A stretch of DNA of 64,000 bases from an uncultured delta proteobacterium (GTDB lineage: Bacteria; Desulfobacterota; Binatia; Binatales; Binataceae), in assembly GCA_963765675.1 (NCBI GenBank), contig CAVXXK010000001.1:27485-91484 (forward strand), read 5' to 3'. Shown here one piece after another: positions 12,550 through 64,000 of this stretch. Every line of letters begins with the position of its first letter. Position 1 is the stretch's first letter. The translations under genes and the position numbers were made by a program. A model generated the notes under the pieces. It was not told the origin of the DNA and did not search any database. It saw nothing but the letters and a program-made list of their open reading frames with translations.

Positions 12550-12734
12550 TTGAGTATAGGCTCCTACCAGCAGACGCTATCCATGGCTATCACACGAAAG
12601 CAGTATTACTAAGAGGTGGCTTGCCGTTTCCCATAGATGGGCACGAGTGATTAGCAACTATCAAGTGCTAAGTTGTTTATGAGAATAGATCTCGTAAGTA
12701 TTAGTGGTTGTAAACGTAGCTTATAGGCATTGAA

Positions 12735-13151
12735 ATGCGGGGTGAGAAGAAATATGTCGGCAAGCATGTAGCACTTTTCATTGGTGTAGTGTACGCGATT
12801 ATCTGGTATCGAATTCCATATATAGCGGCTGGAGAAGGCTGGCTTAGTGTCTACTTGCCAGCCATTTCTCTGCTATTTGCGGTAATGCTCGTGCTCACGC
12901 TCTATTCCGATGACACGCCATGGTTGAATCTGACATACTTTTTCCCGGGCGTGATCATCGGCGTATCTATCGATACTCTAGTGTTCCACAGCAAGGCCTC
13001 GAGAATTGCGTGGCTATTCGAATCCCTAAGCCTTTGCGTGTTTCTAGCACCGATCGCTGTTTTGGCGACAGCGCTTGGTCGCTGGATTAGCAGGAGACGG
13101 AAAAGGCCTGGCAATGAAATTCCTGTTCATGATGAAAGCGAGACTCCATGA
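12735..13151 (+). CDS. Small multi-pass membrane protein in a low-GC segment; candidate Rhs immunity protein 1
   Basis: 138 aa, 3-4 hydrophobic helices. The GC content is markedly lower than the genome. It lies immediately downstream of the Rhs tip. No recognisable domain. Confidence 0.4.
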   Translation: MRGEKKYVGKHVALFIGVVYAIIWYRIPYIAAGEGWLSVYLPAISLLFAVMLVLTLYSDDTPWLNLTYFFPGVIIGVSIDTLVFHSKASRIAWLFESLSLCVFLAPIAVLATALGRWISRRRKRPGNEIPVHDESETP

Positions 13152-13602
13152 GATCGGCGGGGGAACGGAGTGATCATCCTCCAGTGCGTTGACAAAGCAA
13201 GCGAGAAGGTTCGACCGGTGCGCGTACGCGACTGGCGATCACACTATACGTTAGAAGCCTAGGGCGGACGGTGAACGGTTACGATCTCGTCGAGATGTTC
13301 TCTGAGGTTGGTAAAGTCCTGAGTTCGCAGATCATCTATGACCGCAAGACGAATCGTTCGCGGGGATTTGGCTTTCTCTTCGCGATCCGTTTTCTCGCGG
13401 CGTTTTCTCTGGTTGCTCTCGTGAGACCCAGCGATATCATTCGAAGTTGGAGATACCGTCCAGGCGATCCGCTCTGAGAAGGAACTCGTAGCAGTCGTGG
13501 TGCGCTCGAGAAGCACCCTGGCTAGCGAAACATGTTCCGGCGAATAATGCTAGGGTTCGACGGTCTTCCAGAACGGGTTAGAAAATATTCCTTACAAACT
13601 CA

Positions 13603-14525
13603 CAGTTGCATTCGGCTACAACGGGAGCGGCTATCAGAGCACGATCGGCTACACCTGGGACGGGGGTGACCGTCTGACGCAGGTGGTCGATTCAATTGCG
13701 GGAACGATCGCGCGGACCTATGACGGGCTCGACGACCTGACCGACGAGCAGACGCCGCCGGGCGAGGTCAGCTACGGGTATGACAACGCGAGGCGGCGGA
13801 CGTCGATGACTGTTGTGGGGCAACCTGCGGCGGCATCATACGCGTGGGACAACGCGAACCGGCTGACCGGAATTACCCAAGGGAGCGCTTCGGTTGCGTT
13901 CAATTATGACAGCGCGAGCCGAAGGACAACGCTGACGCTGCCCAACGGAATTGTGGTGGCGTATAGTTATGATAAAGATTCGCGGGTAAGCGCGATGACC
14001 TGGACGTTGGCTGGCAACCAGATTGGAGACCTCGAGTACGATTACGATCCGGACGGACGCGTGATCGAGAAGACGGGGAGCATGGCGGCGACCAATCTGC
14101 CGCAGCCGGTGACTGGAAACGCCTTCAATGCGGACAACGAGATGACGGCGTTCAACGGTACCGCGTTGAGCTACGATCCGAACGGCAACCTGCTCAACGA
14201 TGGGAGCAACACCTACGCCTGGGACACGCGCAATCATCTGAGCGCGATCACGGGCGCAAATACCGCGAGCTTCGTCTATGACCCGTTCGGGCGGCGGATG
14301 AGCAAGACGATTGGAGGAGCGGCGACGAGTTTCCTCTACGACGGCCTAAATCCCGTGCAAGAGCTTCAAGCTGGAACGCCGAGTGCAAACATGTTTACGG
14401 GACTGGGGATCGACGAATACTTTCAGCGTACCGACGCCTCGGGTGCGAGCAGTTATCTCACAGATGCGCTCGGCAGCACACTCGCATTGGCAAACTCGGC
14501 AGGCAGCCTCGCGACCAGCTACAAC
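13603..14525 (+). repeat. Internal direct repeat (Rhs core-encoding segment), copy 2
   Basis: See 11150-12075. Confidence 0.8.
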
Positions 14526-14672
14526 AAGGCCTTGGTTAGCTGTCTTGAAGGTTTGCGTGACGATCCGCACAACTGGCCTTTCCCGCCGGATCCAAGTGAC
14601 GATCCGGGAGACATTGGCGCACATGAGTATAGAGAAGGCGCAATCTATATATTCCAGCATGGGGTGTGGTGA
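13683..14672 (+). CDS. Second Rhs/YD-repeat fragment (truncated at both ends; no RHS core end; short divergent tail)
   Basis: The frame opens at ~13549 with no start until the ATG at 13683. Its protein is ~90% identical to residues ~60-360 of fragment 1 up to …LATSY. It then diverges into NKALVSCLEGLRDDPHNWPFPPDPSDDPGDIGAHEYREGAIYIFQHGVW*. This is probably a recombinational remnant (pseudogene-like). Confidence 0.7.
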   Translation: MVDSIAGTIARTYDGLDDLTDEQTPPGEVSYGYDNARRRTSMTVVGQPAAASYAWDNANRLTGITQGSASVAFNYDSASRRTTLTLPNGIVVAYSYDKDSRVSAMTWTLAGNQIGDLEYDYDPDGRVIEKTGSMAATNLPQPVTGNAFNADNEMTAFNGTALSYDPNGNLLNDGSNTYAWDTRNHLSAITGANTASFVYDPFGRRMSKTIGGAATSFLYDGLNPVQELQAGTPSANMFTGLGIDEYFQRTDASGASSYLTDALGSTLALANSAGSLATSYNKALVSCLEGLRDDPHNWPFPPDPSDDPGDIGAHEYREGAIYIFQHGVW

Positions 14673-14704
14673 TCTATCAATCGAACGGAAGGAGGGGGCT
14701 GACT

Positions 14705-15028
14705 GTGGGGGCCGCTGACGATAAGCAAATGTTAGTATTTAATGCGTTTCTAGCGGCGTTGGCGGCGCTATTGCCCTTTTGGTTTTATCATATTGGGTTA
14801 GAGTATTCGTTCCTCCAGAAGCTGCCCTACATGTTCAGAGGCTTGGCGTGGGATCCAATCGCCTTGAACGTTCTGCTATCAATTCCTTTCGTATTTCTAG
14901 CAATTCGCGCTCTCAGGTTGGCCGGCTCATTTCGGAGGAGCGTTCGTCTGCTAATTATAGCAGCTCGGGTTTGTGTGTTTCATTTACATTTTGCGAACAT
15001 TGTTCCTGTTGATAGTCTGGTCAATTAA
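14705..15028 (+). CDS. Small membrane protein, low GC; candidate immunity protein 2
   Basis: GGAGGG at 14690-14695, then GTG at 14705 (or ATG at 14729). …MLVFNAFLAALAALLPFWFYHIGLEYSFLQKLPYMFRGLAWDPIALNVLLSIPFVFLAIRALRLAG… is a hydrophobic AT-rich ORF immediately after Rhs fragment 2. Confidence 0.35.
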   Translation: MGAADDKQMLVFNAFLAALAALLPFWFYHIGLEYSFLQKLPYMFRGLAWDPIALNVLLSIPFVFLAIRALRLAGSFRRSVRLLIIAARVCVFHLHFANIVPVDSLVN

Positions 15029-50991: not shown

Positions 50992-51372
50992 ATGGAAAAG
51001 GTGATGGCGAAGTTCGACCACATGGGTCTGCCGGTCACGAATCTGCGGCGCTCGCGCGACTGGTACGTCAAGAATCTGGGCTTCACGGTCGAGTTCGGAC
51101 ACGCCGATGTGATCGCGATTCAGGATAGCGCCGGCTTCACGATCTTCCTGACCAAGGCGGCCAAGCGGCTTACGGGCGCCAAGTGCACGCTGACGATTCA
51201 GGTCAAAGACGTGGACCAGAAATCGCGCGAGCTCGAGCGCAGAGGCGTTAAATTCGTCAATACTCCGCGCCGATTGTTCTGGGGCTACGGCGCGGAGCTC
51301 CTCGATCCCGACGGCTACATGATCAACCTGTGGGATCGCGTCTCGATGCGCCGCGCGTCACGAATGCCTTAG
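50992..51372 (+). CDS. VOC (glyoxalase/bleomycin resistance/dioxygenase) family protein
   Basis: …FDHMGLPVTNLRRSRDWYVKNLGF…YGAELLDPDGYMINLWD…. Confidence 0.75.
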   Translation: MEKVMAKFDHMGLPVTNLRRSRDWYVKNLGFTVEFGHADVIAIQDSAGFTIFLTKAAKRLTGAKCTLTIQVKDVDQKSRELERRGVKFVNTPRRLFWGYGAELLDPDGYMINLWDRVSMRRASRMP

Positions 51373-51378
51373 CACGCG

Positions 51379-52980
51379 TCAGATCTTCGGCGCGGCTCCC
51401 GAGCGCTGCATCTCCTGATCGAAGCCTGGCGTGATTGCCTGCACGAACGCGTTGCGCACCAGCTCTACGATTGCTTCCCAGGTGCTGACGTCGGGCTGAT
51501 CGACTTTTCCGGACAGCTGCACTTCGGTGGCGACGTTGCCGGTCGAGCGATTCTTGAATAGGTGAGCCGCCCCACCAATTAACAATTTGTATGCCTGGGT
51601 CGTAAGCGGCTTTCGTTTATCCTGTTCCCAACTGTAAACCTGCAGGTTGCTGAACAGCGGCTTCACGTAGCCGTGAATCTCGCCCTCGCGCACACCCATC
51701 TGCGTATACAGCGAGAGCGTTCCCGAGGCGACGTCGATTTTTTCATACGCGCGCAGCACGTCGTTGAGCGATACCAGGTTCACATTTTCCGCGCGCGCGT
51801 CGATATCGAAATCAGGCCCGCTCTTTACCGAACGGAAATCTCCGGAAATCGTGGTCGCGCCGGTCCCCATGAGTTTTCCGGTGAGATCGAAGTGCGTAGG
51901 CTGCGGCTCGCTGCGATTCGAGATCGAGGTCGCCTTCACATTCAGGCTGGTGACGAAAATCTTGTAATTGGGATCCTTGGTCTGGTCGATGTAGGCGAGC
52001 GAGCTTCGTCCGATATCAAATTCGTCAACCGCGAGCTCCATGGTCTGCGACTTGGCGACTTTTTTCGCACTTTGCTTGACCTCGTCGATTCGGCGCTGCT
52101 CGCCGGCTTCAGTTTTCGGCGAGTGCGTGTAGTCGATATCGACTCCGTCGAGAAAGGCGTATTTCACGCGGGCGCGCTGGACCTTGGGTCCGTACTCGAA
52201 CTTGCCGTCGCTGGCGAGAGTTCCGCCGCGAATCGAAAAATTGGCGCGCTTGATCTCCGGCTCGAACTCCGCGAGCGGAACCTGGCGCATCGAGTAGTTT
52301 GCTTTGACTGACGCGAACGGCTTCTCGAGAAAATTCGCGTGGCCGTCAAGCCGCATCCTGCCGGTTCCGAACGCAACCATCGTCGCATGGATCGGCGACG
52401 GGTAGGCGTCCGACGCCGCGTGGACGTTGCGGATATTGTCGGCATTAAGCTCGAGCTCCGTCACATGCAGCGCGTGATGCGGATCGGTATCGACGTAGAC
52501 TAAATCGCCATCAACGATACTCATACGATTGATCTTGAATGGATATACCGCTTGCAGCGCGTCCTGCCATCCGACCTTTGATAGCGAAACTTTGGCCGAC
52601 GCCTGCTCTTGGAGCTGCGGCAAATCGATATGTACCTTCGGCCGCGTGAGCGTCACGTCGGCCACCACGTGCAGCGAAACCAGTTCGCTCCACTGGATAT
52701 GCACGTAGAGAATCGGAAGATCGGCGACCGCGGGATGCGGATGCGCGTCCTGGCGCACAATCAGATTGGACAAGGTGAGCGCTCCGCCGAGCAATTGCAG
52801 ATGCGCGTGGCCGAGGGTCGTGTGGTAGCCGGTCAGCTTCGCATTCATCGCGCTTTCCATCCGTCCGCGCAGAAATGGATCGATCAGGTACGACGCCGCA
52901 AAAATCGCGACCACCAGGACGACGACAGCGACGATCCAGCGCGCGGCGCGCGTTGGAGGTGATTGCGGTGACGAACTCAT
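51379..52980 (-). CDS. DUF748/AsmA-like envelope protein with N-terminal TM anchor
   Basis: 533 aa. N-terminal helix …WIVAVVVLVVAIFAASYLI…. It has a long beta-rich body with repeated …LTLSNL…, …VDGDLVYVD… segments. Confidence 0.5.
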   Translation of the reverse strand: MSSSPQSPPTRAARWIVAVVVLVVAIFAASYLIDPFLRGRMESAMNAKLTGYHTTLGHAHLQLLGGALTLSNLIVRQDAHPHPAVADLPILYVHIQWSELVSLHVVADVTLTRPKVHIDLPQLQEQASAKVSLSKVGWQDALQAVYPFKINRMSIVDGDLVYVDTDPHHALHVTELELNADNIRNVHAASDAYPSPIHATMVAFGTGRMRLDGHANFLEKPFASVKANYSMRQVPLAEFEPEIKRANFSIRGGTLASDGKFEYGPKVQRARVKYAFLDGVDIDYTHSPKTEAGEQRRIDEVKQSAKKVAKSQTMELAVDEFDIGRSSLAYIDQTKDPNYKIFVTSLNVKATSISNRSEPQPTHFDLTGKLMGTGATTISGDFRSVKSGPDFDIDARAENVNLVSLNDVLRAYEKIDVASGTLSLYTQMGVREGEIHGYVKPLFSNLQVYSWEQDKRKPLTTQAYKLLIGGAAHLFKNRSTGNVATEVQLSGKVDQPDVSTWEAIVELVRNAFVQAITPGFDQEMQRSGAAPKI

Positions 52981-53145
52981 CGTGATGCTGTCGCCGTCAT
53001 TGCATCGCTCTGCTTATTTCTTTTCGGGCCGGGCCGAGCCCGGAAATTTCTGCCGGTTTCCATATTCCTGATAGCCGCGCATCTGCGATTTGATAGGTTC
53101 GATCGCAACTCGCGGCTGATTACTCGCGGATGGCGCTTTGGTATC

Positions 53146-54054
53146 GTGCAGGGCGTGCAAAAACCGAACCATCGCTATTACCGCTCGTTTCCCGGCATTT
53201 TCTGCCCTCGCACGAACCGCCTCGCGGTATTCGCGCTGCTGATTGCGTCCTCGGCGCTGATGCTTTCGCTCGCGGCCGCGCCGTCCGCGTCCGCCGACGA
53301 CAGCGTGCCCTCGCAGACGCTGCGCAATGTCGCCGGAATCGTGGCGCATCGCAATGGCCATTCGGTTCCGATCGGCACAGCATTTTTCGTCTCGGTACCG
53401 AGCAGAGTATTCGAGGGTCGCTCGTTTGTTTACGTCGTGACCGCGCATCACAACCTGCTCGATTCCGCCGGCCAGCCCGCCGCCGGACTGTTCCTCACGC
53501 TCGAGGATTCTGGCACCGGCGCGATGCGCGAAGAGGCGCTGCCGCCGGAATCACGATGGGTCCTTGATCCGGTGACGCAGAATTCCGACGTCGCGGCGAC
53601 TCCGCTGAATCCCGCGGGCGCCCGAATCGCGCCGATCTCGCTCGATTCGATCATGGTATCGAGCGCCGAGATGAACGCTCTCGCCGACACCGGCGCGCAG
53701 GCCTACTACCTGACTGCCGCGAGCGCCGGGATCGCGCATCCGCGGTTCGAAGCGCTGGCGAGGTTCGGGCGCGTGTCGGTCTCGCGTCCCGTCGACGCCG
53801 AGGTTCCGGGCGCCGGAACGCAGCAGCTATGCTTCATGGACGGCGGCATCACGCCCGGCTTTTCGAGCGGCGCGCCGGTGTTCGTGCAGGCTGGCCTGCG
53901 CTTCGTGCTGTGGGGAATCCTGGAATCGTCCAACTCAGCCAGCGATTCGCCGGTGTTCGAGGGACTCTCCGGAGTGCTGCCGGCGAGTTACGTCGCGGAG
54001 ACGGTGATGGCGATGGCGGAGGCGCAGGAGAAAGGCCTGCAGAAGAAGAAGTAG
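53146..54054 (+). CDS. Secreted trypsin-like (S1 family) serine peptidase
   Basis: Signal peptide, …VVTAHHNLL… (catalytic His) and …GITPGFSSGAPVF… (G-x-S-G-x-P catalytic Ser). Confidence 0.65.
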   Translation: MQGVQKPNHRYYRSFPGIFCPRTNRLAVFALLIASSALMLSLAAAPSASADDSVPSQTLRNVAGIVAHRNGHSVPIGTAFFVSVPSRVFEGRSFVYVVTAHHNLLDSAGQPAAGLFLTLEDSGTGAMREEALPPESRWVLDPVTQNSDVAATPLNPAGARIAPISLDSIMVSSAEMNALADTGAQAYYLTAASAGIAHPRFEALARFGRVSVSRPVDAEVPGAGTQQLCFMDGGITPGFSSGAPVFVQAGLRFVLWGILESSNSASDSPVFEGLSGVLPASYVAETVMAMAEAQEKGLQKKK

Positions 54055-54136: not shown

Positions 54137-55432
54137 TTATCTGAGTGCTCCCCGGTAGCTCAGTCGGTAGAGCAGACGGCTGTTAACCGTCGGGTCGCTG
54201 GTTCGAATCCGGCCCGGGGAGCCAATCCTAAGTGATTGATATTCCAAGCTTTTGTTATCGCTCTGGGACAAAGCAGTAGATCCGTTAGCAGGCGACTGTG
54301 TGGACTTTTGTGGGGACCCGCTCCTTGGACCGGAATGATCCACCGTTACGTCCGGTTCAAGCGTTGCGATCGCATCGCGGCGCGCCTGCACGCGAATGTG
54401 CGCATACCGACCGAGCATTCGCGGACTGACGTGCCCAGCCAGTTGACGAATCGTTTCCTCCGAGACGGTCGGATTCTCCGCGAGCCGGGTAACGAACGTA
54501 TGGCGGGCGTCGTAAAAACGGATGTTGACGCCCGCCTTCGCGCGAGCGGTATCGAACGCCGTCCGATAGCTCGAATAACTCATGGGCCGGTCGGCATTAA
54601 CGCCATAGATGTGCGGGATGCGGTCGTTTCCTGCGATTGCGACATGATGGAACGGGAACACAAACGATTCTGGATTGGCGTCCGGAAAATGCGACAGCCA
54701 GAGCGTCAGCGCGGCGCAGGCTCGTTGGGTCAGTGGGATCATGCGACCGGTTCCCGCCTCCGTCTTCGAGCGTCCAACTACGATTTCACCCTTGGCGATC
54801 ACGGCATCGCGCCATTCAAGCAGAAGACTCGAGCGGCGCAGCGCGCGAGTCTCGGACGGCCGCAGGCCGGCGTCGATCGAAAGAACGAAGAAGGGATATA
54901 GCGAAGCCGAGCGGCTTTGCCTGATCGCATCAAGCAGCCGCTGCTCATCTTCTCGGCTAAGTGCCTGGCCCACATCCGATCGCTGACGTAACATCCTGAC
55001 GCGACCAGAGATGTGGGACCAAATACCGAAGTGGCGAAGTATCGCGCGAAGCGTGCCGACTTCGGCATTGATCTGGCGCCCGGAAAGCCCCTCAGCTTGG
55101 CGTTTGCGCTGAAGGTCCGCAACATCATCAGCCGAAAAGTCGGTAACCAGCCGGCTCCCAAACTGGCGTGAAAGCTTCGCGATGTATTGCCGGTAATAAC
55201 GTTCCCCCAGAGGTGAGAGGCCGGTCTTGGATTGAAACCATTGGCGCGCTGCCGCCGAGAAGAGCGGTCTTTCCCGTTTCGTCAGACCGTTAACGCCGAG
55301 TTCGAGATCGCGTCGGCGGGCAAGCTCCGCCTGACGGGCAATTGTCTTCGAGTCGGTGCGTGTGCTCTCTCGAATTCGAGCGCCGTCGAATTCAAACTCG
55401 AACCACCAAATATTTCCTCGCTTGTAGAGCAT
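54137..55432 (-). CDS. Tyrosine-type site-specific recombinase/integrase (tRNA-Asn-associated)
   Basis: MLYKRGNIWWFEFEFDGARIRESTRTDSKT… is an integrase SAM-like N-domain. The catalytic region reads …LRPSE…R…YDARHTFVTRL…HVSPRMLGRYAHI… (R…HxxR…Y). The ORF has no stop before it reads through the tRNA 3' half, so the true 3' end is probably earlier. Confidence 0.85.
   Translation of the reverse strand: MLYKRGNIWWFEFEFDGARIRESTRTDSKTIARQAELARRRDLELGVNGLTKRERPLFSAAARQWFQSKTGLSPLGERYYRQYIAKLSRQFGSRLVTDFSADDVADLQRKRQAEGLSGRQINAEVGTLRAILRHFGIWSHISGRVRMLRQRSDVGQALSREDEQRLLDAIRQSRSASLYPFFVLSIDAGLRPSETRALRRSSLLLEWRDAVIAKGEIVVGRSKTEAGTGRMIPLTQRACAALTLWLSHFPDANPESFVFPFHHVAIAGNDRIPHIYGVNADRPMSYSSYRTAFDTARAKAGVNIRFYDARHTFVTRLAENPTVSEETIRQLAGHVSPRMLGRYAHIRVQARRDAIATLEPDVTVDHSGPRSGSPQKSTQSPANGSTALSQSDNKSLEYQSLRIGSPGRIRTSDPTVNSRLLYRLSYRGALR
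54149..54224 (+). tRNA. tRNA-Asn (anticodon GTT)
   Basis: 76 nt. Acceptor TCCCCGG/CCGGGGA, D-arm GCTC-AGTCGGTA-GAGC, anticodon arm GACGG-CTGTTAA-CCGTC (GTT), T-arm GCTGG-TTCGAAT-CCGGC, discriminator G plus CCA. Confidence 0.92.
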
Positions 55433-55539
55433 GGCGTCACCTGTTTTTCGCGATCCGGGTGGATCGCTCCGCCCTGAGGTCACGGGATTTTAGGATGAAG
55501 GAAATGATTCTCGGAGAGCATCGGGTTAAAGCATTTCGG

Positions 55540-55773
55540 TTAATGCACGCTGCTTGCCTCAGCGACGTAACGGCGGACTTCGGGATCTAGCACGACGACT
55601 CGACGGCCAAAATGGGCGGCTCGCAGGTGGCCGCGCTTGATCTCAAGACGCAGGAAGGGAACCGAGACGCTCAGGCTCTGAGCCAGATCGTTGAGGGTCC
55701 ACCCCAGTTTCGGAGCAACGTGCCGGGCGGCGTCGGAATTGGATGGGATTGGAGAATTGGTATGAACAAACAT
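55540..55773 (-). CDS. AlpA/excisionase-family helix-turn-helix DNA-binding protein
   Basis: …LNDLAQSLSVSVPFLRLEIKRGHLRAAHFGRRVVVLDPEVRRYV… It lies between the integrase and relaxase genes. Confidence 0.7.
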   Translation of the reverse strand: MFVHTNSPIPSNSDAARHVAPKLGWTLNDLAQSLSVSVPFLRLEIKRGHLRAAHFGRRVVVLDPEVRRYVAEASSVH

Positions 55774-56000
55774 GATGACAAAAAACCTCGGAGATTGCTT
55801 TCACCGGACGGAAAGAGCGTTTCAGTGGAGTTACTAGCTACATAGCTATATCCACGCATTATGTCAAGCCCCGCTGCACCAGGTCGCGCGTGCGAACCGC
55901 GATGGCAGGGAACGGCACGCGACTGTCCGCGCCCGCGTCCCGAAGGGAAGGGCGCTCCGATACCTGCTTGGGTGCGCAGCATTTTGAAAGCGCCGCCCTC

Positions 56001-58985
56001 TCAACCGAGTCTGGAGGGCGGCGCAGGATTCTGAGACGCGTGTGGCGGAGCGTAGCAACCGTGCCGAGCGCAGCGTCCGGCGCGGGTGCCGGCGGCGCGG
56101 TTGCCCGCGGAGCGCGCGCCACCTTTACAGCGGCGCGAAGCGGAGCGCGAGGCGTGCGATGCACGCCGTGTCCGAGCGGCGAAGCTTGCGGAGCCCGAGC
56201 GTCCGCGCTCATAGCGAAGCGCCGATGAAAAAATGATTCGACGACAGCGTTCGGCAAGACCAGTCACCTTCTGATGCCGTGGGCAGGGGTGATGCTCTGG
56301 CGCGGCGGTTCTGGAACCATCTTGAGGTCTCGCGCCCAGGTTTAGGTTGAGCCGTTCCAGGGCGATCGACTTTTCGCGGTTGCGGCCGACCGCGTGCCGG
56401 AGGGCGGAACTGTCGTCGGTGTAGACGGTGACCCCGTGGCGCGCGCGGCTGATCGAGACGTAAAACTGTTTGCGGTTCACGAGTTCAGCCGAGCGAGCGG
56501 TATCGATGTTGACGATGACGCGGTCGACCGTCGCGCCCTGGCTGGAATGCGAAGTCGAGGCGTAACCGTAGTCGATGTGGCGGAGCCGACTGGCCGCGGC
56601 TTTGACTTCGCGCCCGTCGTCCATCCGCAGCGCGGCCTTTCGGTCGTCGATTGCAACGACCGTCGCAAAATCTCCGTTCGCGACGCCGAGCGCGCGGTCG
56701 GGTGCGCGGAACTGGATGCGGTCGCCCTTGGCGATGACTCTGCGCTCCTCGCGGAACAGATCGACGCCGGTGAGCCGCGCTGGGTTGTATTCAACTGCTC
56801 GACCGTCTTCGGTGCGCACGGTGATCCGGTTGAGATCCGAGTCTGTACTCTCGACTCGTGCGTACGTGTCCTTGCCGAGCCCAAGATGGCGGCTGCCACG
56901 GCGGTAGCGAATCACGTCGCCAACTTCGTAACTCTGAGCGCGCTGGCGCTGTGCGGTGGTTAGGTTGCGGTTGACGAGGATGATCTGCTCTTTCCCTTCG
57001 GCGCCGACATGGGAGCGCTGCTTCAGGAGTTCGCGAATGGCGGAGTTGAGTTGCCGGCGCTCGTCGTTGGCAGGACTGACGACCAATACGCGCTCTCCGG
57101 CCTCGTGCGCGGTGACGTATTCCTGTGCGATGGATTTATATCGCGCATCAGGATTGTCGATCTCGCGGATGCGGTCATGCTGCTCGAGCAGCGCGAGCGC
57201 GCGATCGATCTCTCCTTTGGCCGCAAGCTCCACTGCTTCGCGAAGGATAGGGTCCCGCTGGCGGCGAATCGTGTCCAGCCGCGCCACCGCATCCCGGCCT
57301 GCTGCATCTGGTGGATCGGGTCGTCCCGCCTCGATCGCATGGTGCTGATGCTGGTCGCCGACGAACACGATCCGTTCCACGCCTGCGTCGCGGGCCTGAT
57401 GAAGGAGGCGGTTGACCTGGCGCGTCGCGAGCAAACTCGACTCATCGACGATCCATAATTCCTGACGGCCAGAAGCGGAGATTTTATTTTCGATCAGACT
57501 TGCCACGGTTCGGGACTCGACTCCGGCTTCGGATAGCGCCTTGACCGCGCGCGTGGTCGGAGCAAAGCCGCGCACGGCGTAGCCGTGCTCTTCGGCGAAC
57601 TCGCGGATCGCTCCGACCGTGGTGGTCTTCGCGCTGCCGGCGCGGCCTTCGATCGAGGTGAGCCAGTCGGGCGTCGTGAGGATAAGTTGCGCGACTTCGA
57701 TTTGATCGGCGAACAATCCTCGGTCCGTTGCCCATCGGCGAATCTCTGTGTCATTCGCGATGGGCAGAATTTGGCCTTGGCCCGCGCGCATCAGGTCGAG
57801 GTTATCGCGCTCAAGGGCGAGCATCTCGGAAGTGGTGAAGGTGCCGCCCGGTGAGGCGATGGAAGCGTCCAGGACGATCAGCGCGCGGCGTTGTTCCCAA
57901 GCCATGCCCTCGCGGCGCAACTGGTCGAGATCAATTACTCCCATCGCGTGCTGGAGGGCGGTTGCTTCGAGCGCGCGACGGTCGATCACCGCCTCGCGCT
58001 CGGTGCTGTGCGCCACGGCGAAGCGAAGCGCCTCCTCGATCCTTGCCTGGGTGGAGACCCGAACGGCGGCCTGGGTGTGGGAATGGCCCTCGAAGCGGAT
58101 TCCGTAATCTCGCGCGCGCATGCGCCACTCCTCGCGAAGCTCGCCCTCGTCGCGCTGCTGCTTTGAGAGCCGGCTCTGATGAGCGATATTCTGCGCCGCG
58201 GCCGCTCCGCTGAGGCCGTTTCGCGCGAGCGTCTGCTCGATGTCCCGGCGGCGGCGCGAGAACGCCATCACCTGTTCTCGGCTATAACCTTCGAGCTCCC
58301 AGCGTCCATCGCCGCCGGTAACCGTGATGCCGTAGCCAAGTGAACGTACTTCGCGAGCCAGCTCGGAGCGATAAACCGCGCTGGCGAAGCTCTGTGAGCG
58401 ATAGATCTCGACCGGGTCGAGCCCACGCCATGCGCCGTCGGGCCGGCGAGTCATGTTGGCGATGACGACGTGGGTGTGGAGATGCGGATCGGGACCGTAG
58501 CCGTCATCTGCACCTTTGGCTGGACGCGCCGCGATATGGTCGAAACGCGCGGCGACGATGTTCCGGGTGAGTACCCATTCGCTGCCGCCCTTCTGACGCG
58601 ACAGCGCGTAATGCTCCAGCTCCGTCAGCGCGGTGCTGACCGCGCGGCGATGCGCATCGGTCAATCCGGCGTCTCCACCCGCCAGCGCCTGAATGCTGAC
58701 CGACTTGGGCGCGTTGAAGGTCGCGTCCCATCCCGCGCGGCGTTCGGTTCGTCCATTGGCGTTGCGGACGAGAACTTCGGCAGTGCCCGGCTGTTGGCCG
58801 CGAAGTATCGCGCGAAAATCTTCGGGAGCGACTTCGTCAGAGAGCCCGAGTGCGTCGGCGCCCTGCCCGAACCATTGACCGACGACTCGATGTTCTTCGG
58901 TGTAGTAATCGTCCTGCGAGTACTTCTCTTCGTAGTAGGTCTCGGCCTGACCGGCGCTGAGCGCCCCGCTCGACATGACCAGCAT
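56001..58985 (-). CDS. Conjugative relaxase-helicase, MobF family (TrwC/TraI-like)
   Basis: N-terminal …AETYYEEKYSQDDYY…NAPKSVSIQALAGGD…HLHTHVVIANMT… is the 3-His relaxase motif. The central/C-terminal RecD-like helicase carries the Walker A motif GRAGSAKTT. The ORF tail beyond ~residue 850 is low-complexity. Confidence 0.9.
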   Translation of the reverse strand: MLVMSSGALSAGQAETYYEEKYSQDDYYTEEHRVVGQWFGQGADALGLSDEVAPEDFRAILRGQQPGTAEVLVRNANGRTERRAGWDATFNAPKSVSIQALAGGDAGLTDAHRRAVSTALTELEHYALSRQKGGSEWVLTRNIVAARFDHIAARPAKGADDGYGPDPHLHTHVVIANMTRRPDGAWRGLDPVEIYRSQSFASAVYRSELAREVRSLGYGITVTGGDGRWELEGYSREQVMAFSRRRRDIEQTLARNGLSGAAAAQNIAHQSRLSKQQRDEGELREEWRMRARDYGIRFEGHSHTQAAVRVSTQARIEEALRFAVAHSTEREAVIDRRALEATALQHAMGVIDLDQLRREGMAWEQRRALIVLDASIASPGGTFTTSEMLALERDNLDLMRAGQGQILPIANDTEIRRWATDRGLFADQIEVAQLILTTPDWLTSIEGRAGSAKTTTVGAIREFAEEHGYAVRGFAPTTRAVKALSEAGVESRTVASLIENKISASGRQELWIVDESSLLATRQVNRLLHQARDAGVERIVFVGDQHQHHAIEAGRPDPPDAAGRDAVARLDTIRRQRDPILREAVELAAKGEIDRALALLEQHDRIREIDNPDARYKSIAQEYVTAHEAGERVLVVSPANDERRQLNSAIRELLKQRSHVGAEGKEQIILVNRNLTTAQRQRAQSYEVGDVIRYRRGSRHLGLGKDTYARVESTDSDLNRITVRTEDGRAVEYNPARLTGVDLFREERRVIAKGDRIQFRAPDRALGVANGDFATVVAIDDRKAALRMDDGREVKAAASRLRHIDYGYASTSHSSQGATVDRVIVNIDTARSAELVNRKQFYVSISRARHGVTVYTDDSSALRHAVGRNREKSIALERLNLNLGARPQDGSRTAAPEHHPCPRHQKVTGLAERCRRIIFSSALRYERGRSGSASFAARTRRASHASRSASRRCKGGARSAGNRAAGTRAGRCARHGCYAPPHASQNPAPPSRLG

Positions 58986-58988
58986 GAC

Positions 58989-60800
58989 TCATGCCCTCAA
59001 TCTGCGGGGAGGACGTGGCGGTCGCGGGCCGCCGCTTCCCGGCGGCACAAGGAGCGGCCCGCTGCTGTCGTTTGGCGAGTCCGGCGGCAAGTCAGCGGGT
59101 TCAGTCCGGCAGATGAACCCCGGATGACGCCGGAGCGGCGCGAGATACGGAATCGTGACTTTCGCTCGACGGTAGCCGGTGATGCAGAGATAACCCTCGA
59201 ACGGGCGCAGCATCTGAACCTCACTCGCGAGCGCGACGCTCTCCACCTGCCGATGCGGGTGGATAGTAAAGCCGTCGCGGGAGTCGCCCAGCCGGGTGCT
59301 CTGACCGACGAGACCTCGGCTGACTTCGCGCTCACCGATCTGCGCACTCGACCACCGCGCGGTCTCGGCCTCGCCGGTACGCAGGATCAGCTTGGTGGCG
59401 GGCGCGGCGGCCAGAGTTGCGGTCTGGTCGTGCCCGTAGATGGCGCGAAGCTGGGTGATGGCTTGAAGGCCCAGCACCGCGCAGAGCCCGCGCTTGCGTC
59501 CGCGCACCACCAGCGTTTCGAGCTCGGCCTGACGGCGGAGCACGGGCAGCTCGTCGGCGATGATCCAGACTTTGCCGCGTGATCCGTCGTCGGTCATCAG
59601 ACGTCGCACGATGCAATCTAGCCAGACGCTCTGGAGCGGCAGCGCCGCCTCGCGCGAGTCCTCGGTTGAGCTGAGAAACAGCCACCCCTCACGGGTTCGC
59701 GCCCATTCGAGCGCGCTCCAGGCGTGGACGGCGGATCGCGGAAGATGCCGAAACGAACTGGTCGCGTTGAACGCCGTCGCGACGATTCCGGCGCCCTGCT
59801 CGTGCGCGCCTGGATCGATGAGGACCTCGGCGGGAGTCCCTCGGAGCGCTTCCTTCAGCTTGGCGCGGGGCAGCGCGAGCAGCTTCGGAAGCTCGCCCGG
59901 TTCCCTGGACTTGGCCGCGTCGAGCAGGCCGACGATGAGCGTGCGGGCCGACTGCCGGAAGAAGAAGTCGGCGCCGCCCTGACCGAAGGTATTCGCCGGG
60001 TCGGGAACCAGCGCCGCCGCGAGCGCTTCGGCGTCCATCGCCTCGCTTCCGGGTCTGAGCTCCGACCATGGTGTCCACGCCGGGCAGCGGGTATCGAGCG
60101 GGTTGAGGATCAGATCGCCGCGCTCGGGCCGGAAGAACTCAGGCAGGTACTCGCACTCGGGATCGAGCACGACCGCACTCTCTCCGCGTGCTTCGATCTG
60201 CCGGAGCATCCGCCGGATCGCGGTGGACTTGCCCGAGCCGGGCGCGCCGACCAACAGAAAGTGTTGCGACTCCAGCGCGCGGGGAATCAAGACGCCGCCG
60301 AGTTCGACGCCGTCGCCGCTTAAGTCCCGGCGCAACCGCCGGCTCGGGATTACATCGGTCCCGCGCACGTACTCGTCTTCATCTCCTGCGCCACGGGGCG
60401 GAAAGATGATCAGGAGGCAGGCTCCGACTATCAGAGCGGTGATGACCGCGCCCCAAGGTGCATAATGCCAGAACCAGCCCGCGAACGAGCCGCCGAGGTA
60501 GTACCTGCGGTTGAGGAAGTCGTACATGCTGGCGATGGTGTAGCGCTGGCCGCGGTACGGCAGTGACGCGAACGTTAGTAGAATCTCCTGGGTTAGAAAC
60601 CACGCCAGGAACCATCTCACGAAGTACCGGTGCGCCGCGGTCCCGCCGTAGTGGCCAGTCCAGTACCAGACCAGCGCAACCGTCAAAAGCGCCCACAGAA
60701 GCGCGATGAGGAGCACCGCGCGGAGCGCCGTTTGCGCCCAGACATGCAGCGATGCGAGGTCGGCGCGTCGTCTGACCGCCCGATCAACATATGCGTTCAT
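58989..60800 (-). CDS. Type IV coupling protein (TraD/TrwB/VirD4 family)
   Basis: N-terminal TM helices. Walker A …FLLVGAPGSGKSTAIRRML…. Walker B …VWIIADELPVL…. The start ATG overlaps the upstream stop (ATGA). Confidence 0.88.
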   Translation of the reverse strand: MNAYVDRAVRRRADLASLHVWAQTALRAVLLIALLWALLTVALVWYWTGHYGGTAAHRYFVRWFLAWFLTQEILLTFASLPYRGQRYTIASMYDFLNRRYYLGGSFAGWFWHYAPWGAVITALIVGACLLIIFPPRGAGDEDEYVRGTDVIPSRRLRRDLSGDGVELGGVLIPRALESQHFLLVGAPGSGKSTAIRRMLRQIEARGESAVVLDPECEYLPEFFRPERGDLILNPLDTRCPAWTPWSELRPGSEAMDAEALAAALVPDPANTFGQGGADFFFRQSARTLIVGLLDAAKSREPGELPKLLALPRAKLKEALRGTPAEVLIDPGAHEQGAGIVATAFNATSSFRHLPRSAVHAWSALEWARTREGWLFLSSTEDSREAALPLQSVWLDCIVRRLMTDDGSRGKVWIIADELPVLRRQAELETLVVRGRKRGLCAVLGLQAITQLRAIYGHDQTATLAAAPATKLILRTGEAETARWSSAQIGEREVSRGLVGQSTRLGDSRDGFTIHPHRQVESVALASEVQMLRPFEGYLCITGYRRAKVTIPYLAPLRRHPGFICRTEPADLPPDSPNDSSGPLLVPPGSGGPRPPRPPRRLRA

Positions 60801-61176
60801 TGCCTAATACCTCCGTCGCCTCCGAGGCGGTCGATGTAGTCGCGCGCGGCCTTCTCCGACGCCTCGATGATCTCGTCCACCGCAGACTCGCTCAGGCTCT
60901 GGTCGAGCGCGTGCAGGAACGCCGAGCGAGTCTTCACCACCTCGAATAACAGCCGCGTGAATCTCTCCGAGCGTTCTGTTCGAGCCGTTCGCAGGCTTTG
61001 CTGAGTGCGGCGGAGCCGCCAACTGCTGTTTCGGCGAGGTGCATGTACGTATCGACGACCAGCGACTGAATCAGCGTGGTCGGCGATAAGCCTGAACTTG
61101 CCGCCTGCTTTTCGACTCGCGCGGCGAGCGTCTCAGGCAGCCTGATCGTGTAGGTTCTCTTGCTCTCCTGGCTCAT
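60797..61176 (-). pseudogene. TrwA-like relaxosome accessory protein (ribbon-helix-helix), frame interrupted near 60985-61000
   Basis: The N-terminal frame MSQESKRTYTIRLPETLAARVEKQAASSGLSPTTLIQSLV… is an RHH fold, then terminates. A second frame with no start codon continues …FTRLLFEVVKTRSAFLHALDQSLSESAVDEIIEASEKAARDYIDRLGGDGGIRQ* and ends in ATGA overlap with the T4CP start. This implies a single-nt indel. Confidence 0.6.
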
Positions 61177-61415
61177 CTGACTGGACCTCCGCGCTGCAAG
61201 CATCTGTTTGCAATGGAAAATCAAGGGTTTCCGACGGTTCGCTGATTCGCTTCCACGTCTGTGTACACGTCGCGAAGCACGCGTTTACGCTGAAAGATCG
61301 CGGGCTTTTCTCCATCTCCGTACTCGTTGCTGCAAGCAGGCTTCATTCGCGAATGAGTGACGTGTCATCAACTCACACGCGCAAAGCGCGTCTGCGCATT
61401 TGGTACTGCTGCGAG

Positions 61416-61691
61416 TCAGCCTTGTGACTTGGCGTCGCCGTTGGACAAAGAGGAACTGGGGCGGCGATGATGACTGCCGCCGCCGCTGGAACGTGACCAG
61501 GTCTGGAACTCACGGTCAGCTTGCAGGAAGGCACTGAGAATCTCCGGAATCAGCGCCTTCGAATCCACGGCGTCGCCGTGAACGTGCTCGTAGTAGCGCG
61601 CGTAGCCCTCGAGCGCGGCATTCAGGTCGCCGGCCAGCGTCACGCGCACCTGTAGGGAACGAAGCGGCTTTGCGATGCGTGCGAGTTTCAT
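61416..61691 (-). CDS. DUF2274 domain protein (ICE-associated)
   Basis: MKLARIAKPLRSLQVRVTLAGDLNAALEGYARYYEHVHGDAVDSKALIPEILSAFLQADREF… is the characteristic DUF2274 found beside T4SS genes in ICEs. Confidence 0.75.
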   Translation of the reverse strand: MKLARIAKPLRSLQVRVTLAGDLNAALEGYARYYEHVHGDAVDSKALIPEILSAFLQADREFQTWSRSSGGGSHHRRPSSSLSNGDAKSQG

Positions 61692-61728
61692 ATCGGACCT
61701 CCATTAATGGTTACTCGGAAAGGACTGC

Positions 61729-62058
61729 TCAGAAGGGCGCGAGGTAAGTCAGCAAATGGACCGCAATCAGCGCGGCCCAAGCTGCTACTCCGCCAGCCAG
61801 CAGGCGCCCTGCTCGCGGGTAGCTGCCGATCGCGTACAAGATCGCCGACAGCGCGAAGTTCAGCGCTATCGCGGCGTGAGCCACGGGGCCGACCAGGATG
61901 CCTTGAATCGCGCCGAGCGTCTGGTCCCATGGCATGGCACCGGCGTATTGTGCGGCCCACGATGGCTCGGCTCGAAGCGCGAACAGCGCGGCGGCACAGG
62001 CGGCGATGAGCCATCTGACGTTCGATTTCGGCGCTTGCTTTACTGCGACTGGGATCAT
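61729..62058 (-). CDS. TrbC/VirB2-family T4SS pilin-like protein
   Basis: 109 aa. Signal-like N-terminus …WLIAACAAALFALRAEPSWAAQ…, then two hydrophobic segments (…ILVGPVAHAAIALNFALSAILYAIG…, …AAWAALIAVHLL…). Confidence 0.55.
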   Translation of the reverse strand: MIPVAVKQAPKSNVRWLIAACAAALFALRAEPSWAAQYAGAMPWDQTLGAIQGILVGPVAHAAIALNFALSAILYAIGSYPRAGRLLAGGVAAWAALIAVHLLTYLAPF

Positions 62059-62169
62059 GGGGAGTACTTTTGCGTGGCTACGTGACTAGCTCGCTATGTA
62101 GCGAGATATCGGACGAGTGTCAAGCGTGAAGATCGATCAGCGCGAAACGGTCGGGAGCTTGTTGGCGGG

Positions 62170-62836
62170 CTACTCGGTCAGATAGCCGAGCTGGGAGAGC
62201 CGCACGGTGGCGGCTTCGACGGATACATCGAACGCAAGCGAAATACGCTGGCAGAGCGCTGACGCTTCAGGCGATCCCTTGGCCACCGGCGGGCGCTCAG
62301 AGCGATTCTGGAAATAAGCCTCGACCGCGCGCCGCGCGAAGCTCTCCGGCATCAGCAAGGCACCCGAGGCATAGCCCGCCTGCCATTCAAACCAGTCAAC
62401 GACCGCGCTCGGTCGGAAGCAGGCTCTGCCAGTAACAGCGGTGCGGACTGCGGGCAGCGCCGTACTTGTCGTACAGCCAAGCGTGGAGCATCACGTGGCC
62501 ATATTCGTGGGTCAGGGTCGTGCGCAACCGGTTGTTACGATGCCGTTGCTCCCACAGTTCCCGCGCGATTGTGACCCGCGGCTTTCGGCCGCGCTCGAAC
62601 TGGGTGAAACCAAAGACCTCGTGAATGTCATCGGAAAGATCCGTCGCCAAGTCGAGGTCGGCGGCGTCACGCTCGATCAGCATCGTGACCGCCTCGGTCG
62701 GCACCGGGATGCGTTCAAATCCGAAGTGCTGGCGCAGAAAGGAGGTGATCGTCTCCTCGCACATCTGCTCAAGCTCGCCGATCTCCCAGTGCGGACGCTC
62801 CGGAAAGCGCCCGGTCCTGTCCGGTATCATCTTCAC
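62170..62836 (-). pseudogene. ImmA/IrrE-family metallopeptidase (HEXXH), frame interrupted by a 1-nt insertion near 62420-62460
   Basis: …LTHEYGHVMLHAWLYDKYGAA… contains the HEXXH motif, then the frame is lost. The +1 frame continues …AVVDWFEWQAGYASGALLMPESFARRAVEAYFQ…VEAATVRLSQLGYLTE (track ORF 62170-62358). Confidence 0.7.
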
Positions 62837-63156
62837 GGCTTCTTCCTGCGCTTTACTTCCCGCCGGAACGCCTTCCAGCCTGCGGCGAGTTCCTGCGCAC
62901 TGTTGACGGTCGTCGCGCTGAGGTCGGCTGGAAACCGCCCTGCCAGAAAGTAGAGCACATCCGAATCGACCTTGAGAACCTTGGCGAGTTGTTCAAGGAC
63001 TTCGTCGGAAGGCTTGCGCCGGTCGTGTTCGAGGTCAACCAGGAACGGAATCGAGATCGGCTTGCCATCGGAGTTGCGCACCTCCGCCACCACCTCGCGT
63101 CCCGCCAACCCCAGCTCCTTGCGCCGCTCAACGATGAACTGTCCGAGTGTCTGCAT
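62833..63156 (-). CDS. XRE-family HTH transcriptional regulator (ImmR-like repressor partner of ImmA)
   Basis: MQTLGQFIVERRKELGLAGREVVAEVRNSDGKPISIPFLVDLEHDRRKPSDEVLEQLAKVL… is an HTH_XRE. It overlaps the immA start by 4 nt (ATGA-type coupling). Confidence 0.75.
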   Translation of the reverse strand: MQTLGQFIVERRKELGLAGREVVAEVRNSDGKPISIPFLVDLEHDRRKPSDEVLEQLAKVLKVDSDVLYFLAGRFPADLSATTVNSAQELAAGWKAFRREVKRRKKP

Positions 63157-63279
63157 TAATAGCTATGTAGCATAATGGAATGTGATTAGGAAGATATGCT
63201 GCTCACATCATCCTCTTGCCGTAAGTGTGACACAACTATTCGACTTTTAAACAGTCTCCGCTCCGCTTTGTCTCAAAAC

Positions 63280-63375
63280 CTAATTCTTCTTTTTCCTCTT
63301 CTTTCTTTTCTCCCCCTCCCCCCTCTCCCCCCCTCACCCCCTCCCCCCCCCTCTCCCCCCCGGAGATCTCCCCGA
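63280..63375. repeat. ~95-nt polypyrimidine (C/T) tract with multiple C5-C8 runs (poly-G on the transcribed minus strand)
   Basis: CCTAATTCTTCTTTTTCCTCTTCTTTCTTTTCTCCCCCTCCCCCCTCTCCCCCCCTCACCCCCTCCCCCCCCTCTCCCCCCCGGAG contains only three purines. It explains the spurious Pro-rich +strand ORF 63196-63408. Confidence 0.9.
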
Positions 63376-63565
63376 TCCGGTGCTTGTCACGTTGCGTCTA
63401 AACATTGAGGTATGGAAGGTTGGCCGGACCCCGTCGCGCGTCGGACGACCCGACGTGCATCAATTGTGGCAGCAGCGCGTATCCCATTGCTGAACAAGCT
63501 GGCCGATCGGTCATCGAGTTTCGTTGAAGCCGCTCGCGCAGAGAATTTCGCACAATATCGGCTCC

Positions 63566-63579
63566 CCCCCCCCCCCATA
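63566..63579. repeat. C14 homopolymer (G14 on minus strand) in the immR-upstream intergenic region
   Basis: GGCTCCCCCCCCCCCCCCATATAT. Confidence 0.9.
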
Positions 63580-63581
63580 TA

Positions 63582-63941
63582 TCAGGCCAGGTTCCATCGA
63601 CATTGGATTTCCTGACTGTTCAAGACGTCGATCACGCGCACTGGTTCGCCGAGATCGCTCCATTCGCATCCGTGAACCGGAAGGACCGCAAGATTCGTCG
63701 GACGCCTCGCCAAAACGTCCCGTGAAAAGTCCGTGTCATAGGAAGCGTACAGGATCTCGACGAATCGCTCCTCCGAGCTGGTCAGGAGTGCTCGACTTAC
63801 GCGTGCGAAGGAGCGGTAGAGTTCCGGCGCCGATACCATGATAAGTCCCAAGAGCGTGGACAAACCAGCCACCATCACGAAGCTATTCCAGAGGCACGCG
63901 CGCTCCAGAAGTGTTTTGGCCAACTTCGGCGACGGTTTCAC
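63582..63941 (-). CDS. Hypothetical protein (within the ICE, upstream of immR)
   Basis: 119-aa ORF with one hydrophobic helix (…FVMVAGLSTLLGLIMVSAP…). No recognisable domain. Confidence 0.3.
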   Translation of the reverse strand: MKPSPKLAKTLLERACLWNSFVMVAGLSTLLGLIMVSAPELYRSFARVSRALLTSSEERFVEILYASYDTDFSRDVLARRPTNLAVLPVHGCEWSDLGEPVRVIDVLNSQEIQCRWNLA

Positions 63942-64000
63942 ATCGCGAATGCCGGTATAATCCGCACCTACAGCCGGCCCCGGTTCGATCCAGCCGTAGG

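Follow-up and report, generated by a model that had tools for sequence, protein, structure and literature searches.

A probable T4SS-less mobilizable element, most likely a decaying copy, at a tRNA-Asn gene of an uncultured Binataceae bacterium

The sole tRNA gene that ARAGORN finds in a 64,000-nt stretch of contig CAVXXK010000001.1, from an uncultured delta proteobacterium of the family Binataceae (below, "the window" is this whole 64-kb stretch), is tRNA-Asn(GTT), at positions 54149–54224 of the plus strand. To its right, on the minus strand, lie genes for integration and DNA transfer, and the question is what kind of element they make up. According to the original prediction, this is an integrative and conjugative element (ICE) that continues past the window, with its type IV secretion system (T4SS) genes and attR site further downstream. 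All features named in that prediction are present; the continuation was not borne out. It had overlooked that the conserved element ends inside the window and that four of its reading frames, those of a peptidase, a ribbon-helix-helix (RHH) protein, the relaxase and a small gene that we call orfX, are broken. We consider it likely that the locus is an element of a T4SS-less, ICE-derived mobilizable family in Binataceae, inserted at tRNA-Asn and represented here by a decaying remnant. The annotation is corrected from a conjugative element to a compact mobilizable element, probably a dying copy.

Gene content and limits of the element

The element is integrated at the 3′ end of tRNA-Asn, as had been proposed, and the suggested comparison with relatives that lack the insert could be made. 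Two metagenome contigs, L020 and L023, carry the same 302-amino-acid (aa) gene followed by tRNA-Asn, with 88–91% identity to the chromosomal flank of the window. Homology to the window is lost at 54227, from where both contigs continue into an NHL-repeat gene, with no integrase. Some relatives thus have an empty tRNA-Asn site, and the insertion starts at or within the tRNA 3′ end; the predicted attL junction is at or before 54227. The tyrosine integrase gene (54137–55483; PF00589, 71 bits) is apparently intact and 90% identical to the integrase of L014, a related copy at the same tRNA-Asn. Its reading frame does run into the tRNA gene, in fact antisense across all of it, but what had been taken for a classic attL arrangement looks like incidental read-through: over the last ~30–80 residues there is no protein-level conservation with the nearest relative, L014. 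Next comes a HTH_17 gene (55540–55773) of the excisionase-like Xis/AlpA type, 91% identical to that of L014. It matches PF12728 with 19 bits versus a cut-off of 27, and TIGR01764 weakly; its equivalents in the relatives L006 and L005 reach 44 and 24 bits with PF12728.

The transfer genes likewise proved to be those predicted. The MobF/TrwC relaxase-helicase (56001–58985, a 994-aa open reading frame (ORF)) matches PF08751 (TrwC, 278 bits, residues 11–293), NF041492 (MobF, 253 bits versus a cut-off of 100) and AAA_30 (154 bits), and a UvrD_C_2 helicase domain was also found. Its translation contains the strings HLHTHVVIAN, with the HLHTHVV histidine motif, and GRAGSAKTT, together with an N-terminal YY...Y...YY pattern, and it matches TrwC (1omh, E = 2.6e-47) and TraI (5n8o, E = 2.7e-68) in the PDB. 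The adjacent TrwB/VirD4-type coupling protein (T4CP) gene (58989–60800; PF10412, 299 bits; TraG-D_C, 60 bits) is intact and gives a single tblastn segment against relatives; the protein has a GAPGSGKS Walker A motif and hydrophobic N-terminal segments and matches TrwB (1e9r, E = 2.2e-35). A TrwA-like RHH relaxosome accessory gene (60800–61224) is frameshifted, with an ORF remaining at 60934–61224, and matches RHH_5 weakly; its homologue in the distant relative L016 matches RHH_1 and NikA-like models. Further along are a DUF2274 gene (61416–61691; PF10038, 47 bits) and a gene for a TrbC/VirB2-like pilin (61729–62058) with a signal-peptide-like N-terminus and two hydrophobic stretches. The pilin scores 27.2 bits with PF04956, just under the cut-off of 27.9; its counterparts score 35.1 bits in L005 (82% identical), 28.8 in L015 and 52.2 in L016. 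An ImmA/IrrE-like HEXXH metallopeptidase gene (62173–62836), recognized by frame comparison with relatives and frameshifted, and an intact XRE-family helix-turn-helix repressor gene (62833–63156; HTH_3, 22 bits) complete the set.

To see how far the element extends, we compared it with its relatives. A genome scan with the T4CP yielded 16 loci, nearly all from Binataceae or from metagenome-assembled genomes (MAGs) named "uncultured delta proteobacterium". Nine of them form group 1 with the window, with the order XRE, ImmA-like, TrbC, DUF2274, RHH, T4CP, relaxase, small ORF, HTH_17, integrase; in the six loci of group 2, the XRE-ImmA pair has moved between the relaxase gene and xis-int; L016 is a single distant relative outside both groups. 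At the DNA level, all group-1 copies cease to be homologous to the window at 63172–63176, which is 18 nt before the XRE start codon; across about a dozen related copies, the end falls at 63174 or no more than ~150 nt away; a 20-nt stretch (63223–63204) is common to the window and L007. The other limit of homology with group-1 copies falls at 55930–55974, just past the relaxase gene, and only L014 stays homologous to 54148. Beyond the XRE end, the flanks of the copies are mutually unrelated past at most ~150 nt. They carry genes for a SulP sulfate permease, a Na/H exchanger, a sigma-54 activator, a P450, a KaiC-like ATPase, a glycosyltransferase, a DMFase-like protein and, by sequence reading, IlvD. 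The element is about 9–9.4 kb long, from 54225 to somewhere in 63223–63581, within a right junction zone (63175–63581) defined by comparison with relatives.

The last ~420–820 bases of the window consist of spacer and an NTP_transferase-like chromosomal gene, whose ORF (63582–64000, a mannose-1-phosphate guanylyltransferase-like fragment) runs off the window end. In an orthologous locus, L083, colinearity with the window extends from 63998 to 56670, with 83% identity in the flank, 93.7% in the element and the same right junction. L083 also has a 74%-identical NTP_transferase-like homologue, and the gene was considered as element cargo; this was rejected, since homologues lie in unrelated chromosomal contexts. 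Over a further 10 kb outward, L083 encodes a GH15 glucoamylase, a HAD hydrolase, a phosphoketolase, an IS3 element and an aldolase, and these ~10 kb beyond the window end contain no T4SS gene, tRNA gene, tRNA-Asn repeat or attR, L083 being an orthologous proxy for the window's own DNA past 64000, which was not read.

A search of the window for the 25-mer of the tRNA 3′ end with up to three mismatches gave no second copy, and no repeat was found among shared k-mers of at least 10 nt between the tRNA region and the whole window. Smith–Waterman alignment of the tRNA region with 63157–63600 scored below shuffled sequences. This leaves two options: a very short recombination core in the family, or elements that reach into variable cargo beyond the DNA read.

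Several other features were seen around the junctions. The spacer that separates the NTP_transferase-like gene from the XRE end contains a CT-rich low-complexity tract of ~104 nt (63257–63360); since it is absent from the orthologous L083, it is an insertion or expansion specific to the window genome. A 13-nt poly-C run (63565–63577) lies in the same spacer. In the closest relative, L007, a tRNA-Leu(TAA) gene (L007:2181–2269) is separated from the XRE end by 140 nt and has its 5′ end towards the element. The integrase end of L005, L015 and L018 adjoins the 5′ end of tRNA-SeC, an orientation unusual for tRNA-targeting integrases. On the other side of tRNA-Asn, within 51353–53254 of the window, lies a 533-aa ORF (51379–52980) that L021, a related contig, lacks, the flanks being joined directly there; this is a presence/absence polymorphism by the tRNA gene.

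Mating-pore genes, relatives and control of the family

The gene order in L016 is VirB4-like C-terminus, TrbL/VirB6, VirB8, VirB9, VirB10, S26 TraF-like peptidase, VirB11, TrbC, DUF2274, RHH, T4CP, relaxase and integrase, with the T4CP 53% and the relaxase 61% identical to those of the window. As the T4SS set lies directly upstream of the block from TrbC to the integrase, L016 is a real ICE. Similarly, plasmid pACPOL1, whose relaxase is the closest annotated plasmid relaxase (39% identity), has VirB3/4/9/10/8/11 immediately upstream of T4CP-MobF. As can be seen, pore genes in these two conjugative relatives occupy the place where the window element has the XRE-ImmA pair and then foreign DNA. 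The VirB4-like, VirB6, VirB8, VirB9, VirB10 and VirB11 proteins of L016 had no tblastn match in the 64-kb window or in 29 other loci, and the flanks of six relatives contained no T4SS Pfam domain.

These data bear on whether the element is a full ICE after all, with T4SS genes and attR just past the window end. Such an ICE would account for an integrase at a tRNA gene, a relaxase, a T4CP and a pilin gene all being present, with no attR inside the window. However, conserved synteny stops at 63174 in all group-1 relatives, the next gene is NTP_transferase-like and chromosomal in other contexts, neither the 10 kb further out in L083 nor the six relatives' flanks have yielded T4SS genes, and in L016 and pACPOL1 the pilin/T4CP genes are separated from the element end by the T4SS, which does not lie past a regulatory module. 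We regard a full ICE as highly improbable. Of the parts of an ICE, a relaxase and a T4CP are present in the window, and a VirB4-family ATPase and channel subunits were not found; of those of an integrative and mobilizable element (IME), the window has an integration module of its own and a relaxase with an oriT candidate (see below), and no complete T4SS was found. The mobilizable family to which we assign the element appears to have arisen from a Trb/VirB-type ICE by losing the mating-pore genes. It has retained an R388-like oriT/RHH/T4CP/MobF relaxase module, the pilin and DUF2274 genes, xis-int, and the XRE repressor with an ImmA/IrrE-type peptidase, and would need a helper element to move. 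Two other kinds of element were considered and rejected: a prophage or satellite, there being no phage-type gene among the element ORFs (the PHROGs library was not searched), and an integrated plasmid, no replication gene having been seen.

The genes of the family evolve under purifying selection, with dN/dS of 0.04–0.10 for XRE, 0.12–0.22 for T4CP, 0.11–0.20 for the relaxase, 0.22–0.54 for the pilin and 0.18–0.55 for DUF2274. Fully open copies are found in L005, L006 and L015. Three types of integrase are joined to one core, with copies beside tRNA-Asn, -Pro, -Arg and -SeC (at least four tRNA contexts), and two genomes have two copies each, L004 with L018 (same MAG) and L015 with L019 (same contig). 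Taken together, selection, open copies, the several integrases and tRNA sites and the double copies indicate that the family has been functional and that its architecture without a T4SS has lasted and spread. The pilin segment (61701–62167), compared with L006, L014, L015 and L019, is 35–41% identical between subgroups, versus 80–90% for neighbouring genes; the pilin thus behaves as an exchangeable cassette. The closest annotated relaxases, on plasmids of Acidobacteriota, are only 37–39% identical, and our literature search found no paper linking Binatia with conjugative elements. As a separate observation, each of the two same-genome pairs consists of one largely open copy and one full of frame breaks.

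A candidate oriT was recognized by conservation. Conservation of the non-coding DNA upstream of the RHH gene extends to group 2 and L016, and within this DNA the 14-mer GACACGTCACTCAT (61366–61353, minus strand) is invariant, occurring once per element in 15 of the 15 elements that include the region, the ICE L016 among them. A hairpin, ACGCGC-TTT-GCGCGT (61391–61377), precedes the 14-mer by 8–11 nt, and in other subgroups its stem shows C-G to T-A covariation and variants with nested extensions. Hairpin and 14-mer together (61353–61391) form an oriT candidate with a predicted nick site, for which the support is comparative, not thermodynamic. A scan of viral contigs with the 14-mer gave 59 single matches, as chance predicts.

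The regulatory genes are an XRE gene and an ImmA/IrrE-like gene, a pair of the kind that had been predicted, the peptidase being frameshifted in the window. The XRE gene, which runs into the start of the peptidase gene, is 96–99% identical in relatives and encodes a protein whose best natural PDB match is DdrO, the partner of IrrE. In intact relatives the peptidase is 221 aa long, with the motifs HEYGH and EWQAGY..GALLMP; its profile aligns HExxH and E..A...LLMP with CapP (7t5t, E = 0.013). Many of its 1705 homologues have PF06114 and are named ImmA/IrrE family by NCBI. Relatives at 60–79% identity carry PF06114; the closest sequences reach only 17 bits versus a cut-off of 22 (M78 models). An AlphaFold (AF2) model of an intact relative's peptidase (pLDDT 87.7, pTM 0.88) matches CapP 7t5t (E = 4.8e-6, TM 0.59) and IrrE 3dti/3dte. 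Pairs of an XRE protein and an M78 peptidase are already known outside Firmicutes (IrrE/DdrO, CapP/CapH), so the presence of such a pair in a Gram-negative-type genome is less notable than the original prediction had it. Separately, in two independent relatives (L003:555–977 and protein P0064) the same foreign sequence (YAD[F/S]RIMPR...) interrupts the ImmA-like gene directly behind HEYGH, perhaps because a small mobile element has inserted there more than once; in L003, a fragment of a DDE transposase also lies upstream of XRE.

A motif search retrieved the decamer GCTAYRTAGC (core GCTAnnTAGC) three times in the window, against 0.05 matches expected. One operator-like dyad (63162–63171) stands directly upstream of the XRE start codon, where it would serve autoregulation. 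The other two each follow a TTGACA hexamer of a putative promoter by 15 nt: TTGACA at 62123–62118 and the dyad at 62102–62093 precede the trbC-DUF2274-RHH-T4CP-relaxase operon, and TTGACA at 55867–55862 and the dyad GCTATGTAGC at 55846–55837 precede HTH_17 and the integrase gene. In every group-1 locus covering the sites, the dyad occurs at the same three positions and nowhere else. In group 2 (L008–L011, L017; e.g., L010:8880–8915), the palindrome upstream of trbC is another one, TGCATACATGCA, which follows a TTGC hexamer at the place of GCTACATAGC in group 1; in step with this change, the group-2 XRE protein is divergent, with only 43% identity. This arrangement fits the control of three units, its own operon, the transfer operon and xis-int, by a single repressor, whose binding to the dyads we infer from the motifs.

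A plausible scheme for intact members follows. A dimer of the XRE protein would bind the GCTAnnTAGC dyad at three sites, shutting off the operon that encodes it as well as the transfer operon and xis-int. The peptidase would be activated by a signal (DNA damage or single-stranded DNA, by analogy) and would cleave the repressor. The element would then excise, and the relaxase would nick at the hairpin/14-mer oriT. The T4CP of the element itself, perhaps together with its pilin, would dock onto the T4SS of a co-resident helper ICE of the L016 type, in IME-style mobilization.

One can also imagine a self-sufficient minimal system in which T4CP, pilin and relaxase move DNA without a VirB4-type pore. 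The purifying selection on the pilin, DUF2274, T4CP and relaxase genes and the occurrence of the family at several tRNA sites with no T4SS genes nearby are in keeping with it. However, to our knowledge every characterized conjugative T4SS needs a VirB4-family ATPase and channel subunits, and the related complete ICE in the same bacterial family is an obvious helper. Piracy of helper T4SSs by IMEs is, moreover, well documented (PMC5704250). We give the minimal system almost no credence. For the helper-dependent family a more specific model can be put forward tentatively: Binatia would harbour a persistent family of pilin-carrying T4SS-less elements whose own relaxosome, T4CP and pilin plug into the pore of a helper ICE, with a swapped pilin cassette setting helper specificity or evading exclusion, and with one XRE/M78-peptidase switch acting on three operator-bearing promoters. 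If this is true, the family would be the first of MobF-type IMEs, no IME known before would supply a pilin itself, and the remodelling of a helper apparatus by hitch-hikers, as in SGI1, would extend to the pilus subunit itself. The family provides a parts list from an uncultured soil phylum, namely a candidate oriT, a putative three-site operator regulon and a pore-less MobF/T4CP/pilin module under selection. This combination is missing from the IME types listed in a 2017 review (PMC5704250). The oriT and operator motifs can be used for finding more such elements.

State of the copy in the window

Insertions and deletions (indels) were called against five relatives. Six frameshifting ones, unique to the window copy, fall within 7.2 kb. 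In the peptidase gene, a +1 change at 62402 leads to a stop after ~146 of 221 residues (the HEYGH ORF is 62396–62836), and the third metal ligand motif is lost or out of frame; the RHH gene has a −1 change at 60970. In the relaxase gene, a compensated pair (+1 at 57317, −1 at 57290) scrambles nine residues, and a +1 change at 56334 shifts the C-terminus and replaces the last ~22 residues, giving the fused 994-aa ORF instead of the 902–906 aa of intact copies. The sixth site is in orfX (remains at 55990–56331), a conserved small ORF downstream of the relaxase gene that was recognized from ORF maps of relatives: here, a −2 change at 56084 splits the tblastn match across frames. In intact relatives of both groups orfX encodes 112–137 aa (e.g., L006:14527–14901; L010:14536–14949) and overlaps the relaxase stop codon; it has no Pfam match. 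A tblastn search with the intact L005 proteins confirmed the frame breaks in the window. The XRE, pilin, DUF2274, T4CP, xis-like and integrase genes are open.

L083 presents a different picture: its peptidase and RHH genes are intact, and its T4CP and relaxase genes are shredded. The different lesions point to independent decay of the two copies. With a broken peptidase and an intact repressor, the window element would be locked in the repressed state.

Could the same T4SS-less mobilizable element nevertheless be intact and active, its frameshifts being long-read consensus errors and its recombination core undetectably short? The source contig is 2.44 Mb long, probably from a long-read MAG, and frame breaks occur in many related MAG copies as well. 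The integrase, xis-like, T4CP, pilin, DUF2274 and XRE genes, the candidate oriT and the three operator-like sites are all intact, and since no family member has a long direct repeat, its absence here is not diagnostic. On the other hand, the copy has six unique frameshifting indels in 7.2 kb against five relatives, the adjoining 302-aa chromosomal gene has none in three comparisons, many chromosomal ORFs of 400–700 aa are uninterrupted, and the indels of the window are not in long homopolymers. The intact neighbouring ORFs argue against pervasive assembly error, if not conclusively. Furthermore, L083 has a different set of lesions, and in its XRE promoter the window copy has a −35 region unlike the one in intact relatives. 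An intact, active copy is in our view rather unlikely.

We conclude that the window copy is most likely an immobilized, decaying remnant, because the peptidase, RHH, relaxase C-terminus and orfX frames are shifted, there is no recognizable attR, and L083 is decaying independently. The copy itself is an ordinary, probably degenerate island.

Several points weigh against this overall reading. With a source that is probably a long-contig MAG, some of the six indels could be assembly errors. Beyond the window end, only the L083 proxy has been read. No direct repeat of at least 13 nt was found in ~10 related loci, intact copies included, by exact matching, blastn-short or end-to-end common substrings, so that discrete excision is a prediction, and a larger element with more than 7.5–10 kb of variable cargo is formally conceivable. 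A helper T4SS is hypothetical for the window's genome, the candidate being that of the related ICE L016 of the same bacterial family, and so is a role for the pilin gene in a T4SS-less element. DNA fold z-scores of the oriT hairpin are weak (−0.6 to −2.0) and not significant alone. Finally, a simple sigma-70 promoter scan called none of the proposed promoters, whose assignment rests on the conserved TTGACA hexamers and their spacing.

Elsewhere in the window, at 10990–14672, ORFs with YD/RHS-like repeats are interleaved with small ORFs (12735–13151, 14666–15028) of low G+C content at third codon positions (~0.51 versus 0.7–0.8 elsewhere). Judging from their translations, they resemble toxin and immunity cassettes.

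Comparison with known systems

The order oriT-trwA-trwB-trwC in the DNA transfer module of R388 is well established, and the window element parallels it in layout: the oriT candidate lies upstream of the RHH gene, followed by the T4CP and then the relaxase-helicase gene, and the hairpin precedes the candidate nick region by ~8–11 nt. We take the candidate oriT sequence of the window to be unrelated to that of R388. Unlike R388, the window element is chromosomal and integrase-borne and has no trw/virB T4SS.

Like IMEs, especially those with a coupling protein or some T4SS subunits of their own (Streptococcus elements with VirD4 and MobC, SGI1 with TraN/TraH/TraG, GISul2 with TrbJ/K/L, the IncP island), the window element has a tyrosine recombinase of its own, a relaxase and a candidate oriT, and shares the lack of a complete mating pore. 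SGI1, GISul2 and the IncP island bring some T4SS subunits and remodel the helper apparatus, and, as in SGI1 and GISul2, one pore or pilus component is kept in the window element (PMC5704250). According to the same 2017 review, no canonical IME with a MobF or MobH relaxase was known, and a few IMEs had a VirD4 of their own (PMC5704250). The window element differs from these IMEs in its MobF relaxase, in combining relaxase, RHH, T4CP and pilin, in keeping a VirB2/TrbC-like pilin as the subunit and in its host from an uncultured phylum; its mobilization is predicted from gene content.

In ICEBs1, with its ImmR/ImmA switch, repressor sites are found at the repressor's own, the excision and the transfer promoters (PMC5812530). 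The window element likewise has an XRE repressor gene directly followed by a HEXXH peptidase gene and has operator-like dyads at matching putative promoters, and the XRE-ImmA-xis-int order of group 2 recalls immR-immA-int. Unlike in ICEBs1, the genes are all on one strand, there are three separate operator-like sites, no RapI/PhrI-type genes were seen among the ORFs, and the peptidase of the window copy is frameshifted. IrrE/DdrO of Deinococcus and CapP/CapH of CBASS are also pairs of an M78/COG2856 peptidase and an XRE protein, and the structural and PDB matches are to CapP, IrrE and DdrO; identity is only 14–17%, and the target of the pair in the window family would be a mobile element, not genes for DNA repair or immunity.

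The nearest conjugative systems are L016, which has homologous T4CP, relaxase, TrbC pilin, DUF2274 and RHH genes and the same invariant oriT 14-mer, and pACPOL1 of Acidisarcina polymorpha, with adjacent MobF and T4CP genes and a 39%-identical relaxase. In contrast to the window element and 14 closer relatives, where it is absent, both have a VirB3/4/6/8/9/10/11 set directly upstream. The passage from conjugative to mobilizable by deletion of mating-pair formation genes is frequent for MOBF and MOBP plasmids (PMC9185392), and the pMOB/pdCONJ plasmids offer the same evolutionary route of pore-gene loss (PMC9185392). Unlike these plasmids, the window element is integrated, and whereas pdCONJ plasmids are described as short-lived, the T4SS-less state in the Binataceae family has persisted and diversified under selection.

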